From positions 11,015,859 to 11,079,858 of the forward strand of contig NC_134036.1 of the NCBI RefSeq assembly GCF_964204645.1: a stretch of DNA of 64,000 bases. Direction: 5' to 3'. The notes beneath the pieces are model-generated. The model was not told where the DNA came from, did not search any database, and saw nothing but the letters and a program-made list of their open reading frames with translations. This stretch comes from Tubulanus polymorphus. Lineage: Eukaryota; Animalia; Nemertea. Shown here piece after piece: positions 5,606 through 43,599 of this stretch. Each line of letters begins with the position of its first letter. The first letter of the stretch is position 1. Made by a program: the position numbers and the translations under genes.

Positions 5606-7685
5606 CAATTCAACTGAAATTATACCAATGATTGCCCAGCTTGATATTGATCGAAATTTGCGTCGATGTAGAATCGATATGCACACGGCCCTTTAAAATC
5701 GATCTGCGCGCATCACAGAGTTTTAAGTGTATATAACGTTTCGATCTCACGGAAATTTATCATATTTGATTAGCTGTCGTTTTCCAGACTTTCAAATATT
5801 AATTTGTCATATGCTAATCAAATATGATATATTCCTGTGAGATCGAATAAAATATTTTCGCTGATGTACCATGTGTGTGTATAGAACGTATTATTCTGAC
5901 CGGCCTTACATCTGCGATTGTAAGTGACCATGGAATCCGATGGTTGTGTGGATTGTAAATTTCCAGCGCGTGTTTTGTCGACCACTGGGTTTGGTCCCGA
6001 CTGCCGAATTAATGCCGTAGATCACAGTTACTCGCTGTATAAACGACATGCACAGTTGTCACGCCCTGTTTTTACCGTCAATCGGGTCATCGTCAGTGCT
6101 TTTAAATCTGCCAAAAATTTGTGGACTGTCAAATCTTTTATTTTTTTATTTGGCTTACTAATTTGCAAATAATCAAAGCCACCATCCCAACTCTGTGTAA
6201 ATACCGTACTAGGACGTATCTTTACAATAAGTAGAGACGTAGCGTGGTTTCCGCAAACTACAACGGTTTTATAGTTAAAGGACGTGCCGTCATATGATAC
6301 AACGTGTTGACTGTGCTTTCATTGACAAACACGAATGCTTTTGGCCGATTGATTATTTTCATTTAAACGATTATCATGTTTTACTGACCGCCTAAAATTG
6401 GTGTGAATTGAGGTACTTATCTATATAAGATGATTCTCGCATTTTGAAAAGGATATTTAGATATTATTGTCGCCATGCATATTTATAGTTTTTGCAGAAA
6501 CTGTGTTGTTAATCCAAAGAGAGTTTTCTTTTCTTAAACTCGAGAATCTTCAATTTCAAAGTCAATTCGACACCGATCTCCTTGAGCAATGAACCAACAT
6601 AAAACTGAAACATATCCAAGCGACGGATGAGGTCAATTAGGTGAAGTTTAACCTATAGTTAGATAGTTATACGTTATAATGAGAATTATTATTTCTAAAT
6701 TCGTAGTCGTGAAATCAATGGAAATACTAATGGGACTGTGGTTTCTATAAATAAATGAAGGCGAAGAAAACTGAAAACTGCTCCTGAACCAGGTTCCACT
6801 TAATATATGAGCAATTACTCATTGGTTCAAAGAATATCCAAGTGGAAAAAAATTCATTTACCCTATATGATGGAGTATTCTTATATATCGGTCTACATAT
6901 CATAGTCTATTAATTAAGGGGTTTTGCAGATAAGGTTCGTACAATTACTTAACGCTCTATTCAGGTCTTTTTCGACCATGAACCAAATCATTTGACTCTG
7001 GCTCCAGTTCCAGTGTTATGTGTGTTTTATTTTACTCTGAATCCAGTATACAATTTTGGTAATTTTTGTCTCTTAGTGTAATGGTAAAGATGAAAACTGG
7101 ATTCGGAATCCATTAATTTGATATGGCTGAATACGTTTATTAGTTAACTATATAATTTTGGGTCCGGAATCTTTAGTAAAATATAAAACAGACGCAATTG
7201 GTTCATATTTTACCCGTTTACACTCGGGATTCAAGTGCTGAAATTAACGCCCGACAAGTTGAGAGAATTGAATAGAAAAGTAAATAGTGTATGAATATCT
7301 GAAGTGTAAATACATCAGCGAATTTTCTATATAAACGTTTTTATATCGAATGCAGCAACCGAACGTTTAACACGAAGGCAAAACCGTTAGTAGATAACAT
7401 ACGTATAGTGATAGCAAATGTGCGCGATATTTTTCATTAACGTGTCACATTTAGTAGAACATGTACATTCTAAGTGTTTCGAGGTTTTAACCGATATAGA
7501 TTAGAAGTTATGTTGCATACATTTCATACCAAATTGTTCTTATATTTGAGATGAGGAACTAATTTCATTGAATGATTCAGGTGTTTTAAAAAAGACGCGA
7601 AGGGGCTTCTGAACTAATTTCAAACGACTAATCAAACGAATCACGCGTTCTTAACATATAAATGAATCAATTATGATAAATTATA

Positions 7686-10216
7686 ATGACAGAAGAAGAT
7701 AAAGAAGCATTTGAGTTTGCAGATAAATGTTATTATTGTGAAAAGATATTTAATTTTAGAGATAAAAAAGTAAGAGACCATGATCATTTGAATGGAAAGT
7801 TTAGAGGTGCTGCACATGAGAATTGTAACTTACAAGCTAAGAAAATTAACTTTGTACCAGTTATATTTCATAATCTATCAGGATATGATGCACATTTATT
7901 CATCAAACAGTTATGTCATAAAATAGAAGAAATCAATAATAAAATAGACAGATTAAATTCAAATAGATCAAAAGATAAAATACCAACTTATAAATTTAAA
8001 ATGTTAGCTAGAACATCTGAGAATTATATATCATTCCAATTTGGTTGCCTAAGATTTATAGATTCATATAGATTTTTAAATAGTTCATTAGATAACTTAT
8101 CAAAATCATTAGTTGATGATGAATTAAAAATATTAAAACAACACTACCCAAATAATGATGATTTTAAATTAATGAGATATAAAGGCGCAATTCCATATTC
8201 TTTCTATAAAAATCATAATGATTTTAACATAACTGAATTATTGAAAGAACAATTCTATGATGAATTAAAAAATGAATATGTTAAAGATGAAGTCTATAAT
8301 AGAACATTGAATATTTGGAATCATTTCAAAATAGAAAATCATGGACAATTAGTAGATTTATATTTAAAATCAAATGGATCATTATTATCGGATATATTCG
8401 AAAGATTTAGAGATGTAAACCTAAAATATTTTAATATTCATCCATTGTTATTCCAGCCCAGGTTTAACATGGGATTGTGGTTTAAAATTTACAGATATAA
8501 AAATGGATTTGTTAACAAATATAGATCAATTATTATTATTTGAAAAATCTATAAGAGGAGGTGTTTCAGGTGTATTAGGGGATATAGATATTTCAATGTA
8601 AATGATAACCCTGGATATAAGTTATTATATATAGATGCAAATAATCTATATGGTTGGGCAATGATGGAACCACAACCTTATGGAGTATTTGAAATAAGTG
8701 AAGTTTCACAACATGAAAATAATGATAAATTTGATTGGAAGAAAATAATTCTAGATATTGCAGATGATTCAGATACTGGTTACTTCTTTATTGTAGATTT
8801 AGAATATCCTGAACATATTAAATTTAAATCTAGAAATCTAGCATACTGTCCAGAACATAAAACTGTTACTCATGAAGAATTATCAAATTTAAAAAAAGAA
8901 TTAAACCCGAAAATCATATTCATACAGAAAAGTTAATGGTAACTCAAGAAGATAAATATAATTATGTAGTACATTATAGAATGTTAATGTTTTATCTAAA
9001 ACAAGGAATGATCCTAAAAAAGTACATAGTTATATTTCATTCAGTCAATCTAAGTGGTTAGAAAAATATATAGATTTTAACACCAAACAAGGACATGAAG
9101 CTAAAACTGATTTCGAGAAAGATTTCTTCAAGTTAATGAATAATGCATTCTATGGTAAGACTTGTGAAAATATTAGAAATAGAAATGATATTGAGTTAGT
9201 TAGTAATGGTAAAAGGATAAGGCATTTACAATCATATCCTAAGTTTTTAGGTAACAGAATATTTGATGAAAATTTAGCCGCAGTTAAAATGAGAAGAACT
9301 TCTATGAAATTTAATAAACCAATCTATGTTGGCGGTTTAGTTTTAGAATTATCAAAATTACTAATGTATGAATTTTATTATAACATATTACAACCTCATT
9401 TTGGAGAAAAACATATAGACATCCTATATCTAGATACTGATGCGTACATATTAAAGATAAAAACTAATAACATAACTGATGATTTAAAAACATTAAAACA
9501 TCATTTTGATTTCAGTAACTATCCTAAAGATCATGAATTGTTTAGCAATGATTATAAAAAAGTTCCCGGTAAATTCAAAGATGAATTAGGTGGTGAAGAA
9601 ATGATAGAGTTCATAGGTATTAGATCTAAAATGTATTCGTAAAGAAAGATATCAAACAGATTTTAATTCTAAAATGAAACAATGTCTAGGTAATAGATTA
9701 TCACAATTATTCAGTAAAGAAGCGCATTCAGTTACACTATCTAATTTATTGGGTTGTTCAGATGAATTTCTCAAATCATGGATTGTATATCAATTCAACG
9801 ATAAAATGAATGAAAAAAACTATGGTGAATACTTTCATATTGATCATGTGTTACCGATATCTAAATTTAACATGAATGATGAACACAATCAGAAATTAAT
9901 TTGGAATTGGAAGAATCTAAGACCTCTTGAAAAGAAAGAAAATCAAATCAAATCTAATAAACTAGATTTTCAGTTATATTTGGATCAATTAGATAAAGCA
10001 AAGAAATTCATTGAATTTTGGAACAATGAACCAAATAATGAACAATATGTTGAAGAAATTGAAAAGATTAGTCTAAACCCATTTGATGATAAAAGATATA
10101 TTCTGGATGATGGAATTCATACAGTTGCTTGTGGATGTAATTTAGATGAATACTTAAAATTTAAAACAGAAAAAACAAAAGAGAACGAGATAATGAAAAG
10201 AATTCTATCGTGTTAA
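7686..10216 (+). pseudogene. polB: Protein-primed family B DNA polymerase of element A (fragmented)
   Basis: Endonuclease VII-like VRDHDHLNGKFRGAAHENCN, exo VIFHNLSGYDAH and FIDSYRF, IRGGVS, YIDANNLYGWAM, KLMNNAFYGK, YLDTD, GKFKDE, RSKMYS, C-terminal LNPFDDKRY..DGIHT. Confidence 0.95.
9641..10054 (+). other. HNH endonuclease segment embedded in polB
   Basis: KERYQTDFNSKMKQCLGNRL..LLGCS..FHIDHVLP..NLRPL..NQIKSNK; close paralog of 21149-21595. Confidence 0.85.
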
Positions 10217-10245
10217 TCAAATTTTAATAAAAATATGTATTATAA

Positions 10246-10595
10246 ATGGAGAGTAAACAAACACACAGTGAGAGCAACAAATTATTTCTAGATAGAATAA
10301 AAGATACTACAAATGTAAAATCTGTAGATTATAAATTCAAAAAGTTAACAGAATTAATAATCCATAAGAAATATCTAATTACAAATATTGATACAGTTAC
10401 TAACAAATATGGAGATAAATTAGTTATACACTTAGAATATGAAGGATTAAAAGGAAATACATATACATTCAGAACATATTTACCAGATTTTATAGATTAT
10501 CAAGTGAAGATTTAGAAGAATTATGTTCTGGTGATTTCTATTTCGTATACAAAGGTAAGAATGAAAAGGGGCACCATGAAATAGATTTCGAATAA
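10246..10595 (+). pseudogene. Small conserved Polinton protein, possibly OB-fold ssDNA-binding protein (one frameshift)
   Basis: FKKLTEL..Y.I....TNKYGDKLV..L....YLP pattern; continues in another frame to HEIDFE*; second copy at 33998-34235. Confidence 0.5.
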
Positions 10596-10609
10596 AATAT
10601 GTAAAATAA

Positions 10610-11368
10610 ATGGTAGAATTGAAATAATACAGAATATTTGTTGATTCTAGAAGACTTACAAATTATAAATCACATAATTTACTAGTACAATTAGATAGAG
10701 AATTCAAGAATTGTGTAGATTTAAAATTAGTAAATATAAGTTTATGTAATTCTTTTTACAATGTATCGGATAAAACTATTGAACATAGAGTCTTTTTAAT
10801 TCATGATAGAAATAAATGTAAATGGTTTCATCTTTATCTTAAACCAGGATTATATAATTTAGATACATTAGCGCAGGAAATTAATAGAAGAGCTCGGTTG
10901 AAAATGGGTGCATCTGCTGGATTTGGATTAAGACTGATTAAAAGTGATAGCTCCGATAAAATAAGAATAAAATTAGGTAATGAAGATCAACATCAATTTC
11001 TAGTTAAAAAACCTTTAGCTAAAATTTTAGGAATAACCCCAGATGTACGGATACGCAATGCTGATTCTACACCAAACTTAATACCTTTTACACACTTTTA
11101 TATTTATTGCAATTTAATTGATCCTACAAAAACATTCGAAGCAACTAAAGATATAACTTGTAATTCTGGTTTACTAAACATTTTACCATTGAAGAATGTT
11201 AAAGAATTTGGAACGCAAATAAATTATAATTTAACAGAATGTGATTTCAAACCATGCATTCCTCGTTTTAATAATTTTAGATTAGAAATTAGAAATCATA
11301 ATGGATATTTAATTGATTTGAATAACTTTCCTGTAATTTATGAATTAGTTATAAGATGTAGAGAGTAA
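10610..11368 (+). pseudogene. Minor capsid protein (penton), one early in-frame stop
   Basis: IFVDSR N-terminus, SFYNV, KPGLYN, LAKILG, YIYCNLID, EIRNHNGYLIDLNN; ATG 10610 is in frame with ORF 10898-11368. Confidence 0.8.
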
Positions 11369-11386
11369 TTTTTTTTCACTATATAA

Positions 11387-11728
11387 ATGAATATAACTGT
11401 TGGACCGAGTATATGTTTTAGGTTTGATTTTAAACATGGTAAAGAAATGAGAATTAAACTAAATGATGTAATTACTGATATAAAAAGTAAATCATTTAAC
11501 AATGCATCAATGATTAATAAAGAAAATTATAATATAGGAAAAGTATTTGATTTAATTAAATCACCTTTAGAATATTATGAATTAAATGAAGATCGAATTA
11601 TTGATAATATTAAAAACATATTAACCAAAATATATGATAATCATAAAAGTAGTAATGAAATAAATGTTGAAATAATCATAAATAAGATAACTAAATATTT
11701 TGATGATAGTAATTTCTTTGATAAATAA
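11387..11728 (+). CDS. Hypothetical protein of element A
   Basis: Intact ORF with TAAATG start, tightly packed between neighbours. Confidence 0.65.
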   Translation: MNITVGPSICFRFDFKHGKEMRIKLNDVITDIKSKSFNNASMINKENYNIGKVFDLIKSPLEYYELNEDRIIDNIKNILTKIYDNHKSSNEINVEIIINKITKYFDDSNFFDK

Positions 11729-11950
11729 ATGAGTGATAATAAGTGGATAATAACTGGATTATATCATGGAGCATTACTATCAGTTGGAACTGTTGGTTAT
11801 TCAATGGTTTTAAAAAAAGTATTTATAATGGGAAGTATTAATGTTGATAGATTTGATATAAATGATATCTTAAAATTAACATTAGCAGTTACTTTATCTA
11901 AGTTAACTATTGATTATTTGGAAAAACAAAAATATATTCCTCCCATATAA
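11729..11950 (+). CDS. Small hydrophobic protein of element A
   Basis: Intact ORF, TAAATG overlapping the upstream stop, two hydrophobic segments. Confidence 0.7.
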   Translation: MSDNKWIITGLYHGALLSVGTVGYSMVLKKVFIMGSINVDRFDINDILKLTLAVTLSKLTIDYLEKQKYIPPI

Positions 11951-11974
11951 ATGCGTAATTATTTTACTAAATAA

Positions 11975-12397
11975 ATGGCTTCTGCAGTTATAACTATTAT
12001 AGGAACGGCAATTGTTAACGCTTTAGCATTTACTGGAGGTGGATATTTATTTAAGCATATTGATAAAAATGGATCATTATCAGAACAAAAAAGACATAAC
12101 TTAGCATTAGAAAAATATAATAAAGCAGCAGAAGAATATAGAGAAAAGAGGCAAAACTATATGGATTATATTAACAAGGAATTATATGATCAGAAGATTT
12201 CACATAGAGATTTTCAATCAGTTGATGATGCAATGAGTTTATATAACGCGGTAACCAATAAAGAAAAATTACATCTACATAAACCTACAATATCAGATTA
12301 TTATACCCAAAGTAAAGAACAACAGAAATATGAAATAATATGGATTTTAGGTGGAACTGTTATTGTTATATTTGTAGCGTATAGATTTACTAATTAG
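11975..12397 (+). CDS. Membrane protein with N- and C-terminal hydrophobic helices
   Basis: MAS..IIG.A.VNALAFTG..YLF and E.KRH.LALEK motifs recognised from alpha-adintovirus-like elements. Confidence 0.75.
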   Translation: MASAVITIIGTAIVNALAFTGGGYLFKHIDKNGSLSEQKRHNLALEKYNKAAEEYREKRQNYMDYINKELYDQKISHRDFQSVDDAMSLYNAVTNKEKLHLHKPTISDYYTQSKEQQKYEIIWILGGTVIVIFVAYRFTN

Positions 12398-12418
12398 TAA
12401 TTTTTTTTTGCAAAATAA

Positions 12419-12845
12419 ATGGATGATAATATTGATATTATTCCTCATGATATAAAGAAAAATAAATTAAAAATATATTTAGAAAAAAAAAATATTAGAA
12501 TTTGAAAGTGACTTAAAGATAAAAAACAAAAAATATTTAAAAAGTAAAATTATATATTATTTGATTATAAGTGGTTCGGTTACAATTAGTTCTGTAATAA
12601 CATTTCTAGCAATATTCAGTCCATTAACACCTTTAGCTATATCAATTGGTGTATTAGGATTAAGTTCAAGTGTTTTAACCGGAATAAGTTCAAAATTAAA
12701 TATAAAAAGTAATAAAGAAAAAATCAAAACTAATGTAAAAGAAATTGATAAATTAAAGAATACACTAGATTATATAATAAGTTCAAATGGCCATATAACA
12801 GTTGAAGAACAAGATAAATTATTAAAAGAATTAGTTAATTATTAA
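12419..12845 (+). pseudogene. Two-TM protein, frameshifted in A-runs
   Basis: TAAATG start at 12419; hydrophobic ORF 12561-12845. Confidence 0.6.
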
Positions 12846-12861
12846 TTTTTTAATTATATAA

Positions 12862-14145
12862 ATGGGGTTTCCAAAAGCTTTCCAATATAATAAATCAATT
12901 AAATATAATATTCCTGCAATAGATTTAAAACAAAATATTACATATAAAATTGTAGTTTTGAATTCATTAACTAATTTAGAAATTTACGTTACTCAATCAC
13001 AGTTTTTATTTCTAAATTGGAAAATATGTTTAATACATATGAAGTTACTTTTACTCGAGATGAGTATCATATGTATAAAGTAAAATCTAATATGAAATAT
13101 TGGCAGAACCAATTAAATTTTGCTGTTTATTGCGCAACAACTGGTTGCGGTATAAGTTGGAATGATCATTTAAATAACTTAGATAAAAATTTGAATTATT
13201 CTGATTTAAAATTAATTCACACGATATTTAGATTTCACACATATTTTCAAATCAGAATAATATTAAATGAATTAGAATGTCCTTTACCCGGATCTAAATA
13301 TTTTAAAGAATTGGACAATAATATTAATCTATCTAAGTTTTATAAAATATGTAATGAATTTAATATAAACATTAATTCCGATTTTAGAGCGCATGGTAAA
13401 TTGCCATTGTGTTGGTGAAGAGTATGAAATAAAAAGAATTGATTATATGCATAGAATTGGAGCTTATCATAATTATAAAATTGATAATAATAATGGTTGG
13501 GTTAATTTCATTTTAGAAAATGGTGAAGGTTTTACAAAATCAGGTATACAAAGAATAAATCAATCAATTAGAACTTATTTGATATGTATTTTAGGTGCGC
13601 AAGTTGAAACAAGATCACCAATAGTTGGAAATGATAACACTTCATTCGATGCGCAGAAACAATTCAATGTATTATTTGAAGATTCCATTCATAATGATAA
13701 AAGTATATCGATTCCAGAAAACATTGTAAGATATCAAAATTATTTAGATAAATCACATATTAGATTAAATTATTGTATAAGCCCTAATCTATTAATTATT
13801 TCTAATGATTAAGTATTAAAGATGGGAAATATAATTGGTTATAATAATCTAATTAAAACTGCAACAATAAATAATTCATTTGGATTAAATGATATAAATA
13901 AAACGATTATTACTGCTCCAAAATTAATGGAAGGTGAAAAAAATAAAAAACACATTCAATCAACTGAAACTAAAACTAATGATTCTAAAATAAAAGATTA
14001 CAATACATCAGAAAATATTAGAACTGATAATATTCAACATGATATAATTAAAACTGATAGTGATAATAAATCCCATGAAAATGCTAAATTAGCTATAACT
14101 TGTATAGGAATTGTAATCGGAGGAATATTATATTTTAAATTTTAA
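12862..14145 (+). pseudogene. Conserved element-A protein with C-terminal TM (four ORF fragments)
   Basis: WQNQLNFAVYCATTGCGIS, FRFHTYFQIR, GFTKSGIQRINQSIRTY, DAQKQF motifs across overlapping ORFs. Confidence 0.7.
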
Positions 14146-14160
14146 TTTTTTATTATATAA

Positions 14161-15592
14161 ATGGATGAAGAAATTCCATTGGATCCTTTAGATGAACCTG
14201 GTATAAGTGATGAACCACAACCTGATTTTAATGAAACTAATATTGATAATGATGATGAATCAGCATATACTTCTAATTCTAATTTAGCAGATAGTGGTTC
14301 TAAAGCCCCATCAACACAAGAAAATGATAGAAGAACTAGATCGAGAATAGATCCTGAAAATGAAAATCCAGATTTATGAAAGAAAAATTTAGAATATAAT
14401 GAATTTATGTATAAATTCATACCTGTATTTAAAGATTCTGTATATAATATAAATGCTAGAGGCGCCAGACTTTTAGTACAAGATTTAAAATATTTAGATG
14501 GTGAATATTATTATCATTTGAAAGATGATTATTATATTGATATCTCTTATAAAAAACAAGAAAAAATATTAAAAGAATCAACTTTGGGAAAAGAACCAGA
14601 TAGAATTAAAAGAATAAGTAATAGTAATGTAATAACTGATCTTACCGACACAGAAATAAATCAAAATAGAAGAGTATCTAAACAAAGAATTAATGACTTA
14701 TTTGAAACAATCGATGATAATTCAGAAAAAGAAACAACTTCTGAACAGAATAAAACTTCCAAAACTAGTAATCTTAAATCAAACACTGAAGTTCAAACTG
14801 AAAAACTTTTACCGAATGGATTACTTGATGCAACAGATCAAGAAATAGAAGCTTTAAGTATGTTTTCTAAAAAAACAATTAGAGAAATAATAAGTATACG
14901 AAATGAAGCCGATAAAATTGCGCGCGAAAAAAATATTAGATATAATAAAATTAAACCTTTAGAAAATAAATTATTCGACACCAGAAAAGAATTAGAACAA
15001 TTAAAATTAGATAGAGAATTTAAAGTTATTGAAGAAATTGAATTTAAAAAAAGAAATGCATATTTAGAAAAAGAAATTGATGATTTAGAATATAACATAG
15101 ATTTCAGAAAGAAAAAATGAAATTATTATTAAAATCATATGATTATTGTATTAATAGATTAAAAGTTGTTGTTAAAGAGTTAATAATAAAACCAAATTCT
15201 GACATATCACTAAAAGATAGAATAAAATTATTATTTAAGTTTGAAGGAATACCAATTCTTTCAATTCTAACAGCTGTAACTATGTTATTTACAACAATTG
15301 GTTTAGCAATATCAAATTCTACTCCTACTCCCAATAAACCGGATAAACCCCCAGATAGTAATTCTATACAAGATAAAGTTAAGGATGGTTTAAAAAAATA
15401 GCAAAATATTTATGGGAACTATCTAAAAAATCTGCTGCAGCATTACCAGGAATTATTGCATCAATTGTTGGTTTTATATTCAAATCTGCCGGGAATATTC
15501 TTAACTTTGCTGCTGAACATATTATTTTATTTTTAATTACAGTTGTAAGTGCAATTATTTTTGGGTTAGTTAACATGATAAAAAATAAATAA
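14161..15592 (+). pseudogene. Acidic N-terminus / coiled-coil / multi-TM protein (fragmented)
   Basis: ORFs 14161, 14407, 15117 plus continuation KSAAALPGIIASIVGFIF to stop at 15592. Confidence 0.7.
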
Positions 15593-15611
15593 TTATGTTT
15601 TTGTTAAATAA

Positions 15612-16858
15612 ATGAGTGGGAGTTATATCAATCCTTCTAAGAATCATAGAATATCTAATGCTATTAAAGCAGAAAGATCACATCATATAATTACTCATAA
15701 CCTTTCTAATATTAATCCTGATGAAACTTTATATGTTAGAATTCCTCGATTAACACAAAATACTTTTTATGTTCCAAATAGTATTTATTTATCAGCCGAT
15801 ATAAAAGTAATCGGTAATAACAATAATTATGTTGTTGATAATGTTGGGAGATATTTGATTAAAAAATTAACTATAAAGATTTGCCCAGAAACAGCTTTCT
15901 CATTAGATGATTATAATCTATTTATGCATTATAAAAATTTATGGTTAACTAAAGAAAATAGAAATAATATGATATTTCAAGGCATCCAATCAGAAAACCA
16001 AAATAAATTAAGATCAGGAGCTAATGACGCAATAGTGACTCGTACCGCAGATAATTTGATAAAAAAGATTTATGGAAGCAAATATAAAATTCCATTAGAC
16101 TTTGAATTGATAAATAATAATGCGCCTTTATATAAATATGCAATTCAAGAAGATGTTATATTAGAAATAACATTTGCTCCTGTAAATGAAATTGTTTTAT
16201 CTAGCGTTATTAAAGATTTGGGTTATAAATTATCGAATATATGTTTAGAATATGATACAGTAACTGATGAACATATTTCAAGTATAATTCAAACTAAATA
16301 CAATCAAGGATTTTCATTATTATATGATTATATTGATAAATTTAAAACTGTAACTATTAATGCAAATGATGAAATAATTTATGAGAATATTAACTTCCCA
16401 AGAAGATCTATTAAAGGTATATTAATATTTTTTACCATTGCAACATATTCTAATGGTGCAATACAGGTTGATAAGTATTAAAATCCTGAAATAACAAAAG
16501 TAGAAATAACTATCGAAGGAATAGCAAATAAAATATTTTGTCAAGGAATGAGAATGATAGATCAATGGCCAGAAATTAGAAAACATTTTATGAATGAAAA
16601 AGTGAAATCATCTGAAAATTGTAATATTAATCGAATTGATTATTATACCGGTAATAAATATGCATTATGGTTAGATTTTAGAACAACAGAGGATAATTCA
16701 TTACATGGTTCTGGAAAAAAATTACAAAACACTAAAGATGGAATACAATTATTCATGACAAAGAAAAAAGGAAGCCTAAATTTCAAAATGCATATTTATA
16801 TTATATCTGACGCGCAATTAAATATTGTAAATTCTCAATTAAATAGTGTTATGTATAA
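15612..16858 (+). pseudogene. Major capsid protein (double jelly-roll) of element A
   Basis: ETLYVRIPRL, VDNVGR, YG.KY.IPLDF, LSNICLEYD, RRSIKGIL, ALWLDFR, HGSG, ISDAQLNI; single in-frame TAA at 16479-16481. Confidence 0.88.
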
Positions 16859-16891
16859 GAATTTTAACTTTAATAAAAATTTATATAATAA

Positions 16892-17815
16892 ATGGAAGGA
16901 GGTTAAGTATATAAACATATTCCATATATCGATACACATGCAAATAATGATGGTTTATATTATGTAATACCTTGTAATATAGCTTTGATATTTGATCCTA
17001 TTTTCAAAATTTATAAAACTAAACTAATAGAAATCGATAATAATAAAAGTGAAGTTGTTGATAATTTAAGTAATGTAATTGATAATAATGCAATACCTTC
17101 TACATCTAATAATGTAATACCTTCTATATCTAATGATGTAATACCTTCTACATCTAATAATGTAATACCTTCTACATCTAATAATGTAATACCTTCTACA
17201 TCTAATAATGTAATACCTTCTACATCTAATAATGTAATACCTTCTACATCTAATAATGAAATAATATTAAATATTAGTGAAAATAGAAATTATTGTGATT
17301 ATTGTTAAGGTTAATTTTCAAACGCTCCATCAAATTGGAATAAACATATGAATACAAGGGTACATATTACTAATGTTATAGAACGTGTTGGTTTAAGAGA
17401 AGTTATAGAACACCCATTTAGACATGGTACAAAATTTGTTTCAAATAAAAAAGTAAATGGTAAAGAATTATATGAAGATTTATTATTAGCAACACCTAAT
17501 AAAGATGAATTAGATTTAACCGATGCTAATAAAATATTAGGATCAAACATTGTAAAAGAAATATTAGGAGCAAACACTAAGAAAGATGATAATGAAATTA
17601 TAGTTACAGATAAGCATATTGATAATAAAGATTCTATGAAACATAAAGTAGAAAATAATGATAAATTTGAATGGATGAATAAGCATAACAATGAAACAAC
17701 TACTGATGATGCGGTAAAAAGGATGAAGAATAAGTATAAAAATAAAACAACTATTGATGTAGATTCGGTAGAGCATTTGAATAAATTGTTAGGGTATGAT
17801 AATGAAAGTGATTAA
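16892..17815 (+). pseudogene. Repeat-containing C2H2 zinc-finger protein (three in-frame stops)
   Basis: TAAATG at 16892 is in frame with ORFs 16985 and 17348; YCDYC...WNKHMNTRVH finger. Confidence 0.6.
17084..17257 (+). repeat. 24-bp coding minisatellite x7 (NNVIPSTS)
   Basis: AATAATGTAATACCTTCTACATCT repeated in tandem. Confidence 0.95.
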
Positions 17816-17847
17816 AATATTAATTATATTTAACTCAAATAATAATA

Positions 17848-18240
17848 TTGGTTGAAAATTGTATAAAATAATAGTTAATAAAAAAGGGGGTTTTAAGTAT
17901 TTAAGGTATCTAATAGGGTATCTAATACATATCTAATACATATCTAATACATATTATTTGAAAATACCTTAAATTATATTTCTTTTTTAAATTTATATTG
18001 AAACCTTAGTAATAATAAATAACCTTTATTATTTTAAAACTTATTCATATATTAGTTGAAAAAATAAAAATAAATTGGTTGAAAATTGTATAAATAATAT
18101 TTATTTTAAAAAAGGGGGTTTTAAGTATTTAAGGTATCTAATAGGGTATCAGGTATTAGGGTATCTAATAGGGTATCAGGTATTAGGGTATCTAATAGGG
18201 TATCAGGTATTAGGGTATCTAATAGGGTATCTAATACACA
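17848..18240. repeat. Central non-coding repeat region between the convergent arms
   Basis: ~75-bp direct repeat (17849 and 18076), 11-bp TATCTAATACA x3, 27-bp GTATCTAATAGGGTATCAGGTATTAGG x3.5. Confidence 0.9.
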
Positions 18241-18253
18241 GATATATAAATAG

Positions 18254-18865
18254 TTATTTTATAAATTTATATTCATATGGAAATTGTAGTCTCATTAATA
18301 ATTTTGAACCTTTATTATTCTTTAATTTATTCATATATTCATCATGTAATTCAGTAGGTATAATTTGATTTTCTTCCAATGATTGTTGCATAGATTTTCT
18401 ATCTTTGTTATAAAATAAAACTAGAAATCTTATATTCTCCCTAATGTCTTTAACAATTGAATTATATTTTTGATTTAAAACCCATGTTGTTATCCCAAAA
18501 TGTCTCCCAGAGAAAGCTAAATAACATAACTCACTTTCTCTAACGTTTGAATCATGTAAATTTGCGCAATCATCTATAATGAATAATGTATTTGATCGTT
18601 TGTAAGTATCAATTGCTATTTTAATACAATTATCTAAATTTTCTTTTACTGTTTTAGGATTTAATATAATAAACTTTTTTATCTTAACTATATCTCTATT
18701 ATATGTTTTATTCATTTCATAAGTAGGACAAAATAATATTATGTTATCAAAATGATTCTTATAAATAGTTTCTAACAAATCTAATATGAAATGTGTTTTA
18801 CCACAATTGGTTACTCCAGTAACTAACATATTATGCGGTATAAATATAGATAAATCTTTATTCAT
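18254..18865 (-). CDS. A32/FtsK-HerA genome packaging ATPase of element A
   Basis: Walker A GVTNCGKT, Walker B LFIIDD, SGRH arginine finger, VLNQ. Confidence 0.92.
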   Translation of the reverse strand: MNKDLSIFIPHNMLVTGVTNCGKTHFILDLLETIYKNHFDNIILFCPTYEMNKTYNRDIVKIKKFIILNPKTVKENLDNCIKIAIDTYKRSNTLFIIDDCANLHDSNVRESELCYLAFSGRHFGITTWVLNQKYNSIVKDIRENIRFLVLFYNKDRKSMQQSLEENQIIPTELHDEYMNKLKNNKGSKLLMRLQFPYEYKFIK

Positions 18866-19979
18866 TTATTCTTTTAATTTTACTAGATAAAATCCATTCA
18901 TTAAATTTATCATCATATCCTTTATATTTCACCAAAGAATACTTTTTTCCTTTAAGAGTTTTTGTTTTCAATACTTTTTCTATTTTATATTCTATTTCAT
19001 CTGGATTTGGTACAAGTGATAATTCTTGTTCATAGAAATAACCTAATATTTCTTCATCTTTTAGATCTTCTAACTTATAAACAAATGGTTTAGTTAATAT
19101 TATCTTTTTAATCTTGAATATTTCTTCTGTAAAATTAGGGGTATAACCTTTATAAAATGTTTTTCTATATTTAGATATGCTAACGTGTTGTCCTATCTTA
19201 AATTTAGGTTCTCCAAAATCATGTGTAACAAATGCTCCATATAAATTATTCCAAACTATTTCTGAATTATCTTCTTTTCTAGCTTGTATAGGTTTCATAT
19301 TTATAGAACTATGTTTAGAATTATTATAACCTTTCACTAAATCATCTAACACATCGATATATTTGTATGTTTCATTAGCAGTATTTCCATATATATCCAC
19401 ATTAATATTTCCACATTCTAGTTTTCAATGTTTTATTAAACCTTTCTATAATAGATGCTTTTTTATCTGAATATGTTGAAAAATAATCTACATCGTTATC
19501 GGATAATAGTTTTTTGACATGTTTGTTATAAAATTCTTTACCTTCATCAAATTGTATCTTATCTGGAATAGCTTCTTTAAATATTGATTTAAAAGCATTT
19601 GTCACTTCTATACCAGTTTTATTTTTGATTGGAATTGACCATGCGTATCGACTGAATATGTCTATAACATTTAATATCCAGAAATATCCTTTGTTGTATT
19701 CCTCTAAGTTCTGTCAATTAAATCTGCTTGCCATTGTTGATCGATATATGAAACCATAACTTTTCTTGTTAAATAAGTTTTATCCATTTTCTTGTGTATT
19801 TGATATGTTGGTTGATTTTGTAACCATGATTTCAATTCACTTTATTTCATATTACCATTTTCTTTATCAGATTTAATTTTATTCCATAATTCTGTAACGT
19901 TAGAATATGATACTTTACTTCCTGGGTTGTAATATAACTCTCTTAAATATTGTTCTTTTTTCATCTTATTTTAATCCAT
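18858..19979 (-). pseudogene. Retroviral-type (rve) integrase with C-terminal chromodomain
   Basis: LYYNP, WQADL, IDIFSRYAW, IQFDEGKEF, IERFNKTLK, GYTPNFTEE, Y.IEKVL..LVKYKGY..NEWI. Confidence 0.92.
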
Positions 19980-20346
19980 TAATAATAATTTAGATTTAGT
20001 TTCAATGGCTTTATGATTCGACTTATTTTCTGGTATGATAGGTTTATCATCGTTGGAATCATCTTTATCATCAAATTTGAATTTTGATTTATACAGTATA
20101 TAGTACACCGGATAATATAATAACTGTTACTAATCCAATTGTAATATATAATTTATAATTACTTCCAGCATTAGAAGAATCAGATGGATTATTATTTGAA
20201 TCAATATCAGATAATTTCTGTGGTTCATTTATATCAGTTAATTTCTTTTTCTTAGCTTTTTTAATTCAGCAGATCTTTTACCTAATTCTCTTGACCATTT
20301 AATTTGTTTCTCGGATCTAGGCTTCTTCTTTAACGCCATCACTCAT
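19980..20346 (-). pseudogene. Basic N-terminal, single-TM hypothetical protein (fragmented)
   Basis: TAAATG start at 20346; lysine-rich segment followed by a hydrophobic stretch; fills the gap between neighbours. Confidence 0.45.
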
Positions 20347-20941
20347 TTATTTTAGTTAATTTTTGTTCTGATTCATTTTCTGTTTCACCGTTTGGTTGTA
20401 GTTCATCTGTTTCGTTCTTACCTGATTTATATTCCATAGGCTTGATATTCGAAAATGTTATGACGCCAGTAGAAATTAATGTCATAACCGATCCTAATTG
20501 AAATGAAGCATAACCAACCCATTTTTGTAATTCAGTCATAACTAAATAGTCATTTTTCAAATCACTATATAATTTATTTTCATCATCAATTGGTATTAAC
20601 TGGTTACATAACTTAGAATAACATTTGACAATACCATTTGAAATAGAATCATTTATTTGGGCTAATCTTGCCTATTCATAAATCTTAAAATATTTTATTA
20701 CTTTATCAGGTTTCATAGCATCTAATTCTTGAAAAGTTATTATTTTTCCCAAGAAATCTTTAGATTTTCCTCCAGCAATCAATAGTTCTAGATGATGCTT
20801 ACAATATAAATAGTATTCATAATCTATATTACAATTAACTTGAGCACAATTAGTTACAACTGTATCTTTATTATCAATTATACCCAAATCATCTAATGTT
20901 TTTTCAATATTAATACTATTCTTATTAGATTTCTTTGACAT
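20339..20941 (-). pseudogene. Conserved hypothetical protein (one in-frame stop)
   Basis: ORFs 20941-20672 and 20560-20339 are in the same frame; GKSKDFLGK...Y..YE motif. Confidence 0.65.
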
Positions 20942-21148
20942 TTATATTAGAGAAAAGAAGAAAAAAAAAATATTATAAGTCTTCTTCAAATGATACTAGC
21001 TACTTAAAGCTAAAGAATTTCTATTCGGATCTATTCAAAATATAAAGTATTCTCTTTTTGAAAAGAAAATATTAAAAATATAATAGAATTCACTGGTTAG
21101 TTGAAGTTATATAATTGTTAATATTTTTTATTTGAGATATATTATTCT

Positions 21149-21825
21149 TTAACCACTCATTAAAGACTCAACGTATTGTTCATTATTTGGATCATTGTTC
21201 CATTGATCAATAAATTTCTTTGCCTTTGTTAACTGTTCTAAATATAACTGTAAATCTATTTTATTAGATTTGATTTTATATTCTTTCTTTTCAAGAGGTC
21301 TTAAATTTTTCAAACCCCAAATAAGTTTTTTATTGTATTCATCATTCATGTTAAATTTAGATATTGGTAACGTATGATCAATATGAAAATAATCTCCATA
21401 ATTATCTATATTCATTTGACTATCGAATTGAAATATAATCCACGATTTGAGAAATTCATCTGAACAACCCAACAAATTAGATAATGTTTCTGAATGTGTT
21501 TCTTTGTTGAATAATTGTGTTAATCTAGATCTTAAGCATTGTTTCAATCTAAAATTAAGATCTGTTTGATATCTTTCTCTCATATATTCTGCCATATAAT
21601 AATTATAATGTTCTATATTATCTTCTCGATATTGTTTGGTATATAGTTTAGTGCAAGTTTTACAGCAATATTGAAAACCATCTTTGCTAATCTTACGCTT
21701 ACTAAATTCTTTAAATGGTTTACACTATGGTTTACTAATTCACACTTAGAACACTTCTTGTAATATATATTTATAACACCAGTGTTATTTGTAATATTGA
21801 TAATTTGTGGTTGTTCTGGTTCCAT
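21149..21825 (-). pseudogene. HNH endonuclease with N-terminal zinc ribbon, of the type common in large DNA viruses
   Basis: KKCSKC N-terminus; D.NFRL...LRSRL, LLGCS, HIDH, NLRPL; frameshifted. Confidence 0.82.
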
Positions 21826-21989
21826 TTATTATATGTATTTTTTTACTAATTTGGTTAATATTTTAGAATCCTCTTCCATTTCTTCGACCAACGTCATCCT
21901 TTTTCATTCCTCGCTGCTTTTGATAAGTCGTTTCAGTTCCTTGATATCTAAATCATACCAGTTACAATACCCGCGTCACATGCGGGCAT

Positions 21990-23129: not shown

Positions 23130-23426
23130 CATACTTGTAAATATATTATCTTTATCAAAATAATCTTCACCTATATTTCGAGTATGAATTTTAGATTTTA
23201 AATGTTCATTTTAATATCTTTTATCACTGAATGATTGATTACATGTATCACATTTGTATGTTTCTTTTTCATTCTTTAATTCATCTAATTTAGTTTCTAA
23301 TATATCATCTTTATATTTTAACTTTAATTTATTCTCTAAATGTGTTTTAGTTTTATTGTGTCTTGATTTTTGGGATTTATCTGTATTGATATTACATGTT
23401 GGGCAGTAGTACTTATTTGCTTCCAT
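23130..23426 (-). pseudogene. N-terminal zinc-finger region of the first element-A gene (likely polB N-terminus)
   Basis: YYCPTC..KSRHNKTKTH and YKCDTC..H fingers directly inside the terminal sequence; same composition as element A. Confidence 0.6.
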
Positions 23427-23505
23427 TTTAATACTAAATTTTTTGCTAAAATTGATTTTAGAAGTTCTTCATTTATATTTTATTCATGTATATGAATATT
23501 TTAAG

Positions 23506-23662
23506 AGTAATAGGGGTTCAGTTGTTCTAGGTTAAAGGTTGAACGGGCGGGTGAGTAAAAAATGAAAAATATGAAAATAATAATAATTTCTACTTGAATG
23601 AGGAGTGAAACTCATAAAAAATGAAAAATAAATTCGAGCGTGCGAGAATTTATTTTTTTTTT
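23506..23662. repeat. Element-A terminal sequence (partial hairpin)
   Basis: AGTAATAGGG..TTGTTCTAG.TTAAAGGTTG..GTGAGTAAAAAATGAAAAAT..GTGCGAGAATT matches 34295-34380. Confidence 0.8.
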
Positions 23663-23800: not shown

Positions 23801-24166
23801 AAGATACTATAGACATTGATCGTGTAATATATAATCCTCGCTTGCTAGATCGAAGTGACTGAAGCCATTGCCACTATTATGTTATTTTCAATCATATGAA
23901 TTTCCGTGTGAAAAAGAGGACAATTAAATTGTGACAACTGAGAAACTTTCTCGATTTAAAATTTACCACTCGTCATTATCGTTAACATCATCAGAGTTTC
24001 TGTAGATACTCGTTTCATTGCTAAGTAAGACCCCGCAATTGATATGAAAGGTTAGATTTGAACAGTTTTGGGTTAATCTAAACCCCATCAACAGAGATAT
24101 CAAAATGGTATAATAATGAATTCCAGTAATAAACACATATAGTTGTTATCAAGGAAGTTCGGGAAC

Positions 24167-24625
24167 AGTAGTAGGGTATGTCACTATGGGGCCACAGTGG
24201 AGGGAGGAGGGAGGAGTGAGGAGGGAGGAGGAATGACGTCATACCGGAAGTGACGTCATACCGGAAGTGACGTAATCCAAGATGGCGACCGGAAGTGACG
24301 TCATCCAAGATGGCGGCCGGAAGTTGCGGTTAAAATTCAAATTTCAAATTTTTGGCGGGAAAATTCAAAATTTTTCCGTTAAATCCAAATCAAATTATTG
24401 ACAACAAATCCAAATCAATTTATTGGCGGTGTTAAATCCAAATCAAATTTATTGGCGGTGTTCAATCCAAATTTATTTATTGGTATGATTGAATCCTAGA
24501 TGGCGCTTACGCATTCCTATGCGTGTTTATGGGAAAAGTTGAATCCTAGATGGCGCTATTACGAGATCCTATGTGTACGTGGAGGTGAGGGGGGAAGTGA
24601 AGTTAAATCCTAGATGGCGCTTTTC
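24167..24625 (+). promoter_or_regulatory. Left terminal region of element B with clustered ETS, CRE/ATF, YY1 and CTCF-like motifs
   Basis: CCGGAAGT x4, TGACGTCA x3, CAAGATGGCG x2, AATCCTAGATGGCGCT x3, AAATCCAAATCAA repeats. Confidence 0.75.
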
Positions 24626-24816
24626 CCTGAGTACGGGCAAATTCGAGACAAAGAAAACCAAAAATTAAAAAACTAACGTTTTGATCATTCTTTCGTTTTA
24701 TTAAGAATGAATAACAAATACACAATAAATACACAATAAATAGAATAAATAAGATAAAATACACAATAAATAGAATAAATAAATAAATAATCATATACAC
24801 TGCGTTATTTCCTATA

Positions 24817-27800
24817 TCAATATCCGAACGGAAGCGTGTTATACCGATCTGCGGGGTCGAAAGCTCGTTTAGTATAAACCGCGCGATATATTTTTCGTTC
24901 GTCTCTATTGTAAATAGAACAGTCCTTGATCTTTCTATTAATTTTGTCGGGGTTTGATATGTAAAGATGGTCGTACTTTTCTTCGACAATTATATCTACC
25001 ATGGAACCAAAGTTTACAATTTGTTTGTTTCGAAAATTCAAATTGATCCCTTTAACTTTACATTCAGTCGAAAATGTATTATCTCTAGGACTAAATACCC
25101 GATATGCATAATTTTTTGGTCCAGCCGAAACAAATTCTGAAATAAACGACCCCTCCCCGTATTTATCAACCAATTCATCGGTCATATCACCCAAAAAATT
25201 CCCGGTCGGCGGATCCCATTCACCAGGTTTCACGCTATAAATAATGGAGTCGGTATCCGTGTATAGGGTTCGTTCCCCTAATTTCTCCATATAACTATAG
25301 AGAATAAGCCGCGCATGAGCCGTTGTGAAAGCTGCTAAGGCGACACTGGTTTTGTTTGTCGATTCGACAAATTCTTCGCGTTTTTTTGTAATGCACTCTT
25401 AGCACCTCGTCATTACACAACAACAAATCGCTTATCTCTAAGGTTTGATCTAAAAGCATTCTATATAATTCCCCGGGGTCCGAAATATATTTGGCCGTCG
25501 TTTTATTTTCATTCTGGCCGAGTTTACCCCACATCGAATTCAAACATAATTTCGCGACAGTTCGCATCCCCTTGGCTTTTTTAATTTTATCTTCTTCGAG
25601 TTGGATACCCTCCCTTTCTAAATAATCGGAAATGAATTTATCCTTTTGTTCGCGAGACATATCTTTAGCCGGCCAGCCACTAGCTTCAGTTTTAACTTTG
25701 AGGAATTTCCCTATGTAATCCTCGAATAAACCCGTTTCATTAGTCTCCCAATTCCAAATTTCATATATATCTAATATCTTATAACCAAGTTTCACTGCTT
25801 TTTGTACCTCTAAAGTTACCCAGGTACCGGTTATCGAACGTTCGTCAGCCGAGTGATGACACTTTTCGCGCTGATTGCTTTCATTAGCGCACGTTCGACA
25901 CAATGGGAAAGTCAATTTCCCATACGATCTATACGGGAGTACGGGTAGATATAAACCCCGAGGTGGTAAAACCTTACACTTGATCAACCCGTAATAATTT
26001 TCGATATCGCCGAAGTTTTCAGTCACAATACTCGGATGACCGATCGGATAACTACAACGACTGTTGACGTACGGGTATAACGAACATATGTCGATGTATT
26101 TGATTTTTTCTTCACCCTCGGCTTTGCGATAAATTTTTATCGCGTTCGTACGACCTCCGAAAAATGCGTCACGTGGTTGCAATGGATCGAGAAAATCAGA
26201 TTTCTTGACAAAATCTGCAAACGCGTGGTTTTCTTTAACCAAGTCACGATATTCGTGTTCCCAAAATTCTACCAAATTGTAACCCAAAGCTCTAATTTTA
26301 GATGTTTTTTTCTAATGTGGCCTGATATAATTCACCAATTTTACGATCGGGTCGTACCGGAGATATCAAATCCGGATTTTTGAAACACTTAGGGCATCCG
26401 TGATTTAAACAACCGTGAAATTCATACACGGTATTGGATTCGGCGTGATAACCGTCTACTTTAAAGTGGGCAATCGATACTTCGCCGCCGTTCAACGCGT
26501 GTTGGACTCTAATGTCGTTCGTTGTGGATACCCATTTCAAGCAGTTAATTGCCATATTGGAAAATTTTGCATTAGGCTTATAGCCACCCGGAGGGATTAG
26601 CCCTATTGTTGTTGGTTTCAAAAAGTTTGTTCGTAACGCCACATTGCACGCCGATGCTATAGTGATGCTATTACGAAATGGATCAACAGCCGAAAGAGCA
26701 AAGAATTGATGTTGAAAATTTACGACCGATTGTATTAGAATATCCACATCCGAACGACAGTATTCGACCAACTCGCGCTGCATGTCAAAAATGAAATTTT
26801 CAGACTGCCGATCGCTATGCCACTTTATTAAATCAGACCGCTCGCTCGAACTAAGACCGTCGGGATTGTAATATTCTATATCGGGAATAGGTCCGACGTA
26901 ATCAATATTCTCGCGAGTGCAGAATTTATACGGAAAATACCCTTTTTTTCAATTCTGGAATACCTAGTGTTTCAGGTAATTTACCAAGTTTCATTGGTAG
27001 AAAATTCAGTGTGTCCAAAAACTTTATGTCCAAACTTTTAACGGTCATAGTCATTATTTTCCCACCGTTTGGTACAATATCTGGTAATATACCTTGTGAA
27101 ACAAAATATTGCAGAATAAAGTAACCGTCAAAGGATTGAAAATTATGCGCAAAAACAATGGCGCCCCTATTCTCTTCCGTAAACAACCACTCGCAGAATT
27201 CAGAGTCCGTTTTAAACACGTGTTCGTGTTTACCGCAATAATCGCAAACCGAGTCGGGGTCCGTTTCGACCATTCACACATTTGACATATTCTATGCGCT
27301 ATACCCAAGACGACAACGTGGTTCGATTCCACAGTCGTTGTTTCGAAATCGAATGCGATGAACTTTCTATATTTCAGCTCATCGCCAGCCTTGTCCGCAT
27401 CCAAATACGGGTTAATTAGTGTATGAGGGGTGCCCTGTTCCTCAGAAACTATGTGATCCTGACTTTTGGCAACCCCGATGTAGCAAAGATGATCGCTCGG
27501 TTTTCGCTCTTTACATGAACTGCAGTATTTATGACCGCAGTCGTGAGATTTGAGATCAAGCTTCTTTCTAGGTACAATAGACCCGCATTGTAAACATCTC
27601 GCCTTTGAATCGCATAAGCTTGACCCATCCATTCTCGGTCTGCAGTGTCTGGCTAAACACGCCTCCGATTTAAAATAAATGTTGCATTTTTTGCATAAAT
27701 GGTCTCCTCTTTGTTGTCCGCAATTGCCTAAACAAAGTCTGCATTTATCCGTACAGCTATGTCTCTCAGCATTCGCATACCCCTTTTTACAAAAATAGCA

Positions 27801-29872: not shown

Positions 29873-29932
29873 TTTTCTGTAAGAAAAAGAAAAACAAAAA
29901 TGAGTATGTGTTATTTTTAAAAGAGACTAATC

Positions 29933-30256
29933 TTGAGTGTTTGCAAGTCAATTATGGGTCGACTATCGAGTGCCTATTCAATGGACGGGTTATTACGAAC
30001 GCTACTGTTCACGATTTTGGATTACACGCGAATACACCAAGTGTTACTGAGTCAAAAGCATTTAACATATATTCAACGTTTAGCCAGATATTTTGTAGAT
30101 TGCGACGAACCAGATGGATTTTGCATAGTTTTGAAAGAATTAAACATGACGGAGCGGTTCCTTTATAAAATTGTCGGCGCTATATTTTGTTTAGATGTGA
30201 TTGATCTTCAACCGGAGCGTAAATATTTCATTCGAAGAATTTATATCGATGTATGA
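29933..30256 (+). CDS. Possible hypothetical protein of element B
   Basis: 107-codon ORF between polB and the ATPase; no motif recognised. Confidence 0.3.
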   Translation: MSVCKSIMGRLSSAYSMDGLLRTLLFTILDYTRIHQVLLSQKHLTYIQRLARYFVDCDEPDGFCIVLKELNMTERFLYKIVGAIFCLDVIDLQPERKYFIRRIYIDV

Positions 30257-30561
30257 AAAAAGGCGACTAGTGTTTTATGAAAAACAATCAAACCGTGAAT
30301 ATGTAAAATCGGAAAATAGTCAAACCGTATTTTTAACTAATGTTATTTTGTCAAAACCGTATAGTATTTTCCTATTAAAAAAGTTCAAACCTCATTTCTT
30401 CAAAATTGAAAATTTTTAAAACCTCGTTTAGTAAAAATAAAGAATCTAGTAAACCATAAAACGCTTGAACTGTTTTTTCTAAAATATTAGCAACCTCCGG
30501 TTTCTATTAAAAGTGTTTTTTTTCGTTCGCTACTAAAACACATAAACACCAAAACACTAAG

Positions 30562-31190
30562 ATGGCAGAGTATGATGGTCCTAGATATTTATCTCACCCA
30601 TTCACGATGATAGTCGCGGGACCGACGGGGTCTGGCAAAAGCGTGTTTGTAAAAAAGGTTATAACGGAGAATCTTGTCGAAAAGAATCCTGATAAGATAT
30701 ATTGGTGTTACGCGGAGGCGCAACCCGAAATGTTCAACGAATTGGAAAAGTTTGGAGTGCGATTTGTAGAAGGTTTTTCCGGAGAACTCTACGATAAAAT
30801 AGATGGCAGCAAACGTGTATTAATTATAGTCGACGATTTGATGAATGAAGTAGTTTGTATACACGAGGATCCCATCATCGCAACATCAGCGTTATTACGA
30901 TTGTACAAAATATTTTCCCGAAAGGCAAAGAGTTTAGAACGATTAGTTTAAACTCGCATTATATTGTCGTTTTTAAAAATGCGCGAGATAGAAATCAAGT
31001 TCGCGTTCTCGCTTAACAAGCCGGTTTGAAAAGCGAAATTGAATCGGCCTTTAGAGACGCAACCAAGGAACCCCACGGTTATCTTTTACTGGATTTTAAA
31101 CCGAAAACTGATGAAAGATGGCGTTTGAGAACTAGAATTTTTCCTAGCGATAAATACCATATAATATACAAAACAAAGAAAATTCATTAA
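30562..31190 (+). pseudogene. Packaging ATPase of element B
   Basis: HPFTMIVAGPTGSGKS, IIVDDLM, then shifted frame TRGSHHRNIS, RTISLNSHY, PHGYLLLD, RLRTRIFP. Confidence 0.92.
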
Positions 31191-31228
31191 AAGTATAATT
31201 TTCGACTAATAACTAATAAAAGAAGACC

Positions 31229-33101: not shown

Positions 33102-33276
33102 AAAAGTCATTAAAAGCATATTGTTTTTTAAGTGTAAATAAAATTATGAGAAAAGATGAATTGGCGAAAGTTATTTTGTTGGTGTTGTTTGAAGCAGGAG
33201 GAGCCGAATTTCGAGTGTCAATTCAATAGAGTTAATTGAGTATTGAGCACGTGTTGCGGTAGTACAACTGTAATTG

Positions 33277-33997: not shown

Positions 33998-34445
33998 GTA
34001 AATATGTTCTGAATTTATATGTATTTCCTTTTAATCCTTCATATTCTGAGTGGATAACTAATTTATCTCCATAGTTATTAGTAACTGTATCAATATTTGT
34101 AATTAAATATTTCTTATGAATTGTTAATTCCGTTAACTTTTTGAATTTATAATCTGCAGATTTTACATTTGTGATATCTTTAATTCTATCTAAAAATGAT
34201 TTGTTGTTCTCACTGTGTACTTGTTCACTCTCCATTTTTATAACATATTTTTTATTAAAATTGATTTTAGAAGTTATTAGATTAATTTTGTAAGAGTAAT
34301 AGGGAATATGTTGGTCTAGATTAAAGGTTGAGAGGTTGAGTGAGTAGAAAATGAAAAATAAATTGTGCGAGAATTAATTTTTCATTTTTTACTCACTCGA
34401 CCTTTCGACCTTTGATCTAGAACAACATATTCCCTATTACTGTTA
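33998..34445 (-). mobile_element. Element-A family fragment: terminal hairpin joined to the SSB-like gene
   Basis: 34235-33998 encodes a close paralog of 10246-10490; hairpin at 34295-34441. Confidence 0.88.
34295..34441. repeat. 147-bp imperfect palindrome (70-bp arms, 7-nt loop)
   Basis: AGTAATAGGGAATATGTT...AACATATTCCCTATTACT with 7 mismatches. Confidence 0.95.
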
Positions 34446-43598: not shown

Positions 43599-43599
43599 G

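Follow-up and report, generated by a model that had tools for sequence, protein, structure and literature searches.

A 64,000-nucleotide stretch of the genome of the nemertean Tubulanus polymorphus (RefSeq assembly GCF_964204645.1, contig NC_134036.1, positions 11,015,859 to 11,079,858; hereafter the window) holds an island of 22-26% GC at ~7670-21950, between flanks of 35% GC. This island, element A, is a broken Polinton-like virus (PLV) with pPolB, an rve integrase, an A32 ATPase and a double jelly-roll (DJR) capsid protein. About a dozen genes accompany pPolB, the integrase (rve plus chromodomain) and the ATPase in two convergent blocks, and most are broken (see the table below). The capsid protein is 74-76% identical to intact proteins of relatives; a structure model of one of these (P0002, 75% identical; pLDDT 88) was matched by Foldseek to the capsids of iridovirus and Paramecium bursaria chlorella virus 1 (PBCV-1) at E 1e-15, and also to that of mavirus. 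The capsid family is large, with 3111 representatives at E 0.001. The pPolB remnant, truncated and broken, was matched by tblastn to the 1176-1211 aa pPolB proteins of two relatives (L022 and L024), the first of which hits Pfam DNA_pol_B_2 at E 6e-19. No adenain-like maturation protease was found in the window, either with Pfam or by tblastn with the protease domains of two relatives, the copy being incomplete.

An earlier note on this DNA had placed element A at 7680..21960. Its left limit agrees with a cut inside pPolB at ~7678, before which reads continue with dissimilar sequence, so that this end has been lost; on the right, family sequence extends past 22500, to where read depth is still high. 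Depth in DNA run X5 was ~130-940 over element A and 31-83 on the left flank. Only 938 of the 65,836 mapped reads were at least 99% alike, most being 90-99% alike, which indicates that element A is one of many diverged copies. A piece of a capsid gene of the element A type stands alone at 43571-43912 (181 nt, 90% to 16191-16371). One presumed-RNA contig set gave two short partial matches, which speak neither for nor against expression.

The same note had listed 14 gene starts that read exactly TAAATG, and all 14 do. The peptide after each listed ATG matches the N-terminal part of an open reading frame (ORF) of an intact relative, weakly at 14161 (E 0.003) and 10246 (E 3e-5), indicating that these sites are gene starts and not ATGs picked for their motif. 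When starts were set against other ATGs, as the note had proposed, TAAATG was found at 14/16 homology-supported starts and at 18/353 of the remaining ATGs on the coding strands of element A (Fisher p 7e-15). The supported starts that lack it belong to the integrase and to an HNH-like copy at 9674, and the pPolB start is lost. For the integrase a TAATG start at 19979 had been suggested; relatives place the start at 19964 instead, which is not TAAATG here, although the L002 homolog does start with TAAATG. The start at 18865 overlaps the integrase end.

The signal reaches further than the hexamer itself. A T at position -12, a feature outside the selection of the starts, is present in 14/14 TAAATG starts versus 6/18 non-start TAAATG sites of element A (p 1.1e-4), and all 14 starts have A at -4. 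A T-run upstream, also claimed for these genes, precedes many of them; in five of the 14 its place is taken by an A-run or by mixed sequence, and 6/14 have two or fewer T in -15..-11.

A metagenome scan yielded 35 loci related to element A (L001 and following), in which starts were counted as first-ATG ORFs of at least 70 aa with a homolog in another locus. In 16 of these loci (L001-L014, L016 and L018; capsids 46-75% identical) 49/57 starts read TAAATG, compared with 1/105 in the 19 more distant loci, and out-of-frame ATGs within the same ORFs of the 16 loci did so in 35/832 cases. Of the eight other starts in these 16 loci, some are ATGs internal to ORFs that are cut or split, and some are near variants. 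The motif is kept at 36-44% GC (L006-L008, 9/11 starts) and found at 0/5 starts of an outgroup locus, L019, at 26% GC. Here too T(-12) marks the starts, with 49/55 TAAATG-started ORFs versus 22/85 non-start sites (p 5e-14), and the upstream sequences of these 55 ORFs range from a T-run type to a type with an A-run and then T. Position -3 is T in 53/60 in-group ORFs, versus A or G in 69/103 outgroup ORFs. In a capsid protein tree of 24 rows, from which 12/35 loci (fragments and L021) were left out, the motif group is split off by a single branch (support 100/99) and contains four motif-bearing subclades. Likely pPolB starts also read TAAATG (L014:2972, L048:4984). A scan of genome contigs returned two distant loci, both without the motif. 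Taken together, the TAAATG signal is real, lineage-wide and constrained in position beyond TAAATG itself.

The second of those pPolB starts belongs to an unrelated Polinton on an IMG/VR contig of 9034 nt, L048, found through its pPolB, which has TAAATG at 7/7 starts, pPolB included, versus 0/95. Its ATPase is very distant from the element A group (branch 4.6); a protease-like domain is fused to its rve-chromodomain protein, and a ~190-nt palindrome precedes pPolB. The simplest reading is that L048 obtained the motif by separate gain or module exchange, with the long branch leaving its place unfixed. Another IMG/VR contig (L047/L051, 15545 nt) combines a Sputnik-type virophage capsid with a pPolB 47% alike to that of element A, and has the motif at 0/9 starts.

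Table. Features of element A and of two end fragments of the same family (positions in the window; Lnnn:position denotes an ORF of a related locus).
Feature	Position	Strand	Evidence and remarks
pPolB remnant with endonuclease VII-like domain	7680..9642	+	5' part lost, three frames; Pfam Endonuclease_7, weak DNA_pol_B_2
HNH-like ORF, no TAAATG	9617..10216	+	inverted partial copy of 21149-21825; tblastn to L002 and L018 ORFs
Promoter-like site: A-run, then T(-12), TAAATG at 10246	10229..10248	+	sequence
Gene, broken	10246-~10589	+	homolog of first ORF of L001
TAAATG-started gene, broken near start	10610..11368	+	41% to L001:565 (tblastn)
Four small genes, TAAATG at 11387, 11729, 11975 and 12419	11387..12845	+	homologs in relatives
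Conserved ~440-aa gene, broken, TAAATG at 12862	12862..14145	+	60-76% to L001:2996 (tblastn)
Conserved ~480-aa gene, hydrophobic C-terminus, broken, TAAATG at 14161	14161..15592	+	homologs L001:4328 and L009 (tblastn)
Major capsid protein gene, double jelly-roll	15612..16859	+	stop at ~16481; T-run precedes TAAATG at 15612
Broken gene with 24-nt tandem repeats	16892..17815	+	A-run type promoter site at 16892; homolog L002:2461
27-nt tandem repeats between convergent gene blocks	17874..18258	.	repeat search
A32-like packaging ATPase, frame open, TAAATG at 18865	18254..18865	-	Pfam Pox_A32 E 9e-12
rve integrase with chromodomain, broken	18858..19964	-	start not TAAATG in this copy; Pfam rve E 4e-8, Chromo
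Pair of conserved small genes, broken, with TAAATG at 20346 and 20941	19971..20941	-	homologs in relatives
HNH-like gene, broken, TAAATG at 21825	21149..21825	-	homologs L006:3289, L018:2278; L002 homolog has weak Pfam HNH
Separate end fragment, same family	23211..23662	-	zinc-finger ORF starting TAAAATG at 23426, behind palindrome arm
Second end fragment, within element B	33998..34445	-	90% copy of 10246 gene start (TAAAAATG) behind palindrome

Several of these genes carry further detail. The two HNH-like features are linked by an inverted repeat of 411 nt at 84%. Judged by size and place, the product of 10610-11368 is a candidate minor capsid (single jelly-roll) protein. The last of the four small genes (12419-12845) is broken, has a weak SLATT-like Pfam match and corresponds to L001:2541; it is a small two-helix membrane gene, and the SLATT class has been tied to antiviral defence in the available text of 10.64898/2026.10.13.758929. 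The ~440-aa family gave no sequence matches in PDB. Short tandem repeats between gene blocks are common to element A and the relative L005, at its 3' end.

The zinc-finger ORF had been counted among the gene starts of element A; its TAAAATG is as described, and it lies in a separate end fragment. The palindrome of the other fragment (34291-34445) is near-perfect, 155 nt long with 74-nt arms and -58.7 kcal/mol as DNA. Its arms recur at 23489-23662 and 86-147 and contain the pox-early-like AAAAAATGAAAAA, and L001 has a similar, smaller palindrome before its homolog of the 10246 gene. These palindromes may represent a joined or hairpin end of the element A family. The early-like AAAANTGAAAA occurs eight times in the window, three of them in palindrome arms and none directly before element A genes, and was not counted as evidence for early promoters. 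TTTTTNT, the pox early stop signal, is depleted on the sense strand of both groups (18 vs 193 and 17 vs 112); this reflects A-rich coding strands and was rejected as a pox sign.

Element B (~24165-34000) is a second decayed Maverick, richer in GC, with pPolB, an IVa2/A32 ATPase and rve. It also encodes a TATA-binding protein (32575-32934; Pfam TBP E 4e-24). The earlier observation that its starts lack the motif stands (0/10 checked). Further along, a long interspersed nuclear element at 50194-54638 on the minus strand has a zinc-knuckle ORF1, an endonuclease and a reverse transcriptase, with ORF2 in two pieces. The repeat content fits the invertebrate origin that the earlier note had inferred.

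The architecture of these starts resembles published promoters of vaccinia virus. In vaccinia late promoters, as a review (PMC11980589) describes them, TAAAT and a following G overlap the start codon, and one T among several upstream, at a distance of 10 nt, is conserved; in intermediate promoters TAAA is preceded by a T and, beyond it, by a stretch rich in A/T. If the first A of TAAAT is the start site, as it is taken to be in PMC6211774, the conserved vaccinia T would be at -12; with the first T as reference it would be at -13. TAAATG is retained in a fish poxvirus (PMC4542343), while mimiviruses, iridoviruses and African swine fever virus (ASFV) use other motifs and TAAAT is reported only near some ranavirus polymerase genes (PMC5294985). 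The starts of element A and its relatives share with vaccinia the TAAAT overlapping the ATG (then G in 73%), the conserved upstream T and a T-rich or A-rich core; they differ in that the motif sits on a ~15-kb integrating element without transcription genes, where the promoter role is read from sequence. A motif that is lineage-specific, position-constrained and matches the published late/intermediate architecture supports transcription by a pox-type viral polymerase. We therefore favour, at a probability of roughly 0.65, the reading that TAAATG and the upstream T are recognised by the pox-type polymerase of a co-infecting cytoplasmic helper virus. That the helper would be a true poxvirus or a close relative is a more tentative proposition, a little short of even odds.

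Several observations weigh against transcription by a pox-type helper. The likeness was judged by published descriptions, with vaccinia positions from the review, and not by scoring against a matrix derived from poxvirus genomes. TAAATG is a short motif rich in A and T, and the motif groups were first drawn after it had been seen, although the capsid tree later separated them. Because some loci in the four subclades are near-copies, the p-values overstate independence. In L048, T(-12) is present at only 4/7 starts. Among 52 ORFs of the window, 31+22 of relatives and 12 further ORFs, Pfam found no pox-specific gene, and the Pox_A32 hit is a match to the ATPase family as a whole, not specific to poxviruses. 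IMG/VR was scanned three times, with alignments of the capsid, the ATPase and the kinase, and yielded neither a helper sequence nor a relative; a promoter-pattern scan brought up just 10 contigs, unrelated and mostly phage-like, each with 0-2 motif starts. On the side of a helper, two motif-bearing members encode deoxynucleoside kinases (L001:10340-10981 and L008:2898-3380; 31% over 59 aa), so distantly related to each other as to suggest separate gains; the best fold match of the kinase, turkeypox (29%), is level with a Megaviridae kinase (29%) and so favours neither as donor. The relatives are partial loci, none of them whole, which leaves some room for an element-borne factor. Finally, a cycle confined to the cytoplasm does not account for the nuclear steps that integration and spread through the germ line require. 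The earlier claim that a pox-like helper transcribed element A therefore fares unevenly: the motif matches vaccinia architecture, but neither a helper, nor a viral RNA polymerase gene, nor a transcript was found, other TAAAN systems are possible and the copy is broken.

Part of the probability given above belongs to a variant with the same mechanism and a polymerase from a non-poxvirus system with a pox-like initiator, either a virus of the Pokkesviricetes (egovirus-like) or an autonomous linear element of the cytoplasm, like pGKL2 of yeast. The searches turned up no poxvirus, and the variant draws on the TAAAN initiator with slippage of yeast virus-like elements (PMC6211774) and on basal egovirus RNA polymerases that originate from marine sediments (10.1101/2024.03.23.586382). 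We consider it unlikely, while giving it some weight, as T(-12) and the two upstream types fit vaccinia. Yeast virus-like elements, moreover, need an upstream ATNTGA, which lies within 45 nt of just 1/52 starts here. ASFV initiates on an ATA-type sequence and its late motif is variable (PMC7163114), and egovirus promoters are undescribed, the word 'promoter' being absent from the available text of 10.1101/2024.03.23.586382. Quite improbable is a promoter read by host Pol II or a nuclear virus (compact and TATA-like), or by an element-encoded factor, with no cytoplasmic helper. Many sites do read TATATAAATG, which would fit a TATA-like promoter, the element must enter the nucleus to integrate, and the TATA-binding protein of element B shows that Polintons can carry transcription factors; yet element B, in the same host, has the motif at none of its starts, and large genes of unassigned function, in which such a factor might be sought, are also present in motif-less relatives. 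A TATA box touching the ATG would, in addition, start RNA inside the gene.

Very unlikely, in our judgement, is an origin of TAAATG as a signal for translation or gene packing in a genome rich in A and T and read by host Pol II, where a stop in frame before the ATG would serve re-initiation or block read-in. The TAA does form a stop in the frame of the ATG, the genes lie close together, and at 11729 and at L001:8470 this stop is also that of the upstream gene. True stop-start junctions, however, account for 1/49 TAAATG starts of relatives, and genes at the head of blocks and divergent genes carry TAAATG as well. TGA or TAG would be equally suitable yet hardly occur, T(-12) plays no part in translation, and AT-rich outgroup members lack the motif. 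We give least credence to the promoters being a relic of an ancestor with a pox-type helper, from which copies in this genome later spread without one. Most genes of this copy are broken and it is one of many diverged copies, with most reads 90-99% alike, as such a history would predict; however, the motif is retained in relatives whose frames are open, over a span of 46-75% in capsid identity and 20-44% in GC, and this is a sign that selection has continued to act.

We infer every step from promoter to life cycle of element A under helper-driven transcription. The first A of TAAAT, 2 nt ahead of the ATG, would be the transcription start, giving mRNA without a templated leader and with a poly(A) leader made by slippage, as in vaccinia; RNA starting inside TAAAT in this way suits a slipping pox-type polymerase and not Pol II. 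The T-run type would act like a late promoter and the A-run type like an intermediate promoter. Pfam found no RNA polymerase family among the ORFs scanned (no relative having been seen whole), in agreement with what the earlier note had stated for element A, and helper-driven, post-replicative expression is therefore the best reading, as for mavirus and Gezel. All genes, pPolB included, would be switched on only after helper replication, comparable to mavirus with the late promoters of Cafeteria roenbergensis virus (CroV); genome copying by pPolB and packaging by A32 would take place at or close to the helper factory, and rve would insert copies into the host germ line.

A promoter signature readable from DNA bears on how animal Polintons are expressed and on whether any need a helper: it could sort Polintons into those likely to depend on a helper and others, and could name the kind of helper. 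If the helper reading is true, the mavirus model would apply to animal germ lines as well, and pox-type viruses would be indicated in hosts where searches found none. More speculatively, and with rather more doubt than belief, at least two unrelated integrating PLV lineages may have separately adopted poxvirus late/intermediate promoters as germ-line provirophages of unseen poxviruses or their closest kin. The promoter would then be a fossil record of poxviruses and a helper marker for endogenous Polintons, and intact copies could be an inducible antiviral defence.

Both PLVs associated with insect poxviruses and promoter sharing (mavirus, Gezel) are already known. We found no published report of pox-type promoters in a Polinton or PLV, in a search whose coverage leaves out most subscription papers; the word 'promoter' is absent from the available texts of PMC11131425, PMC8502044, 10.64898/2026.10.13.758929, 10.64898/2026.06.19.733378 and 10.1101/2024.03.23.586382, and 'pox' from that of 10.1101/2025.04.19.649669. 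Closest in kind are AHEV_PLV1/2, CBEV_PLV1 and Ca_PLV1 (PMC11296320), small animal PLVs with DJR capsids that are proposed poxvirus hyperparasites, one of them host-integrated. The entomopoxvirus PLVs were found physically in occlusion bodies; 4/4 of them encode a cysteine protease and two have no integrase, whereas element A has rve with a chromodomain and a protease was not found. The main text of that paper does not contain 'promoter', 'motif' or 'TAAAT', and its supplements could hold a promoter analysis.

Mavirus with its helper CroV shares with element A pPolB and rve, integrated copies and gene promoters that, in mavirus, match the late motif of the helper (10.1101/068312). It differs in its protist host, mimivirus-family helper, other motif and virophage capsid (11% identity by fold match to the element A type), and its helper dependence is experimental where that of element A is deduced. 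No Sputnik/V20 Pfam match was found for the window or the L001 capsid, though L047 has one. For Gezel-14T (PgVV), dependence of a PLV on a giant virus was likewise read from shared promoter motifs, but the host is an alga and the motif is the mimivirus early AAAATTGA, present at some genes (10.1101/2022.07.28.501842). Element A is probably a PLV with a virophage-like way of life, and is neither a member of the Lavidaviridae nor a canonical protease-bearing Maverick (Polintoviricetes group 1). Like element A, Polinton-N1A_NV and 3_NV of Nematostella, together with coral and bivalve elements, combine pPolB, rve and A32 with a DJR capsid outside the Maverick clade. These animal Polintons with PLV-type capsids are probably the wider family of element A; the motif, lacking in the 19 distant loci but for 1/105 starts, marks one sub-branch.

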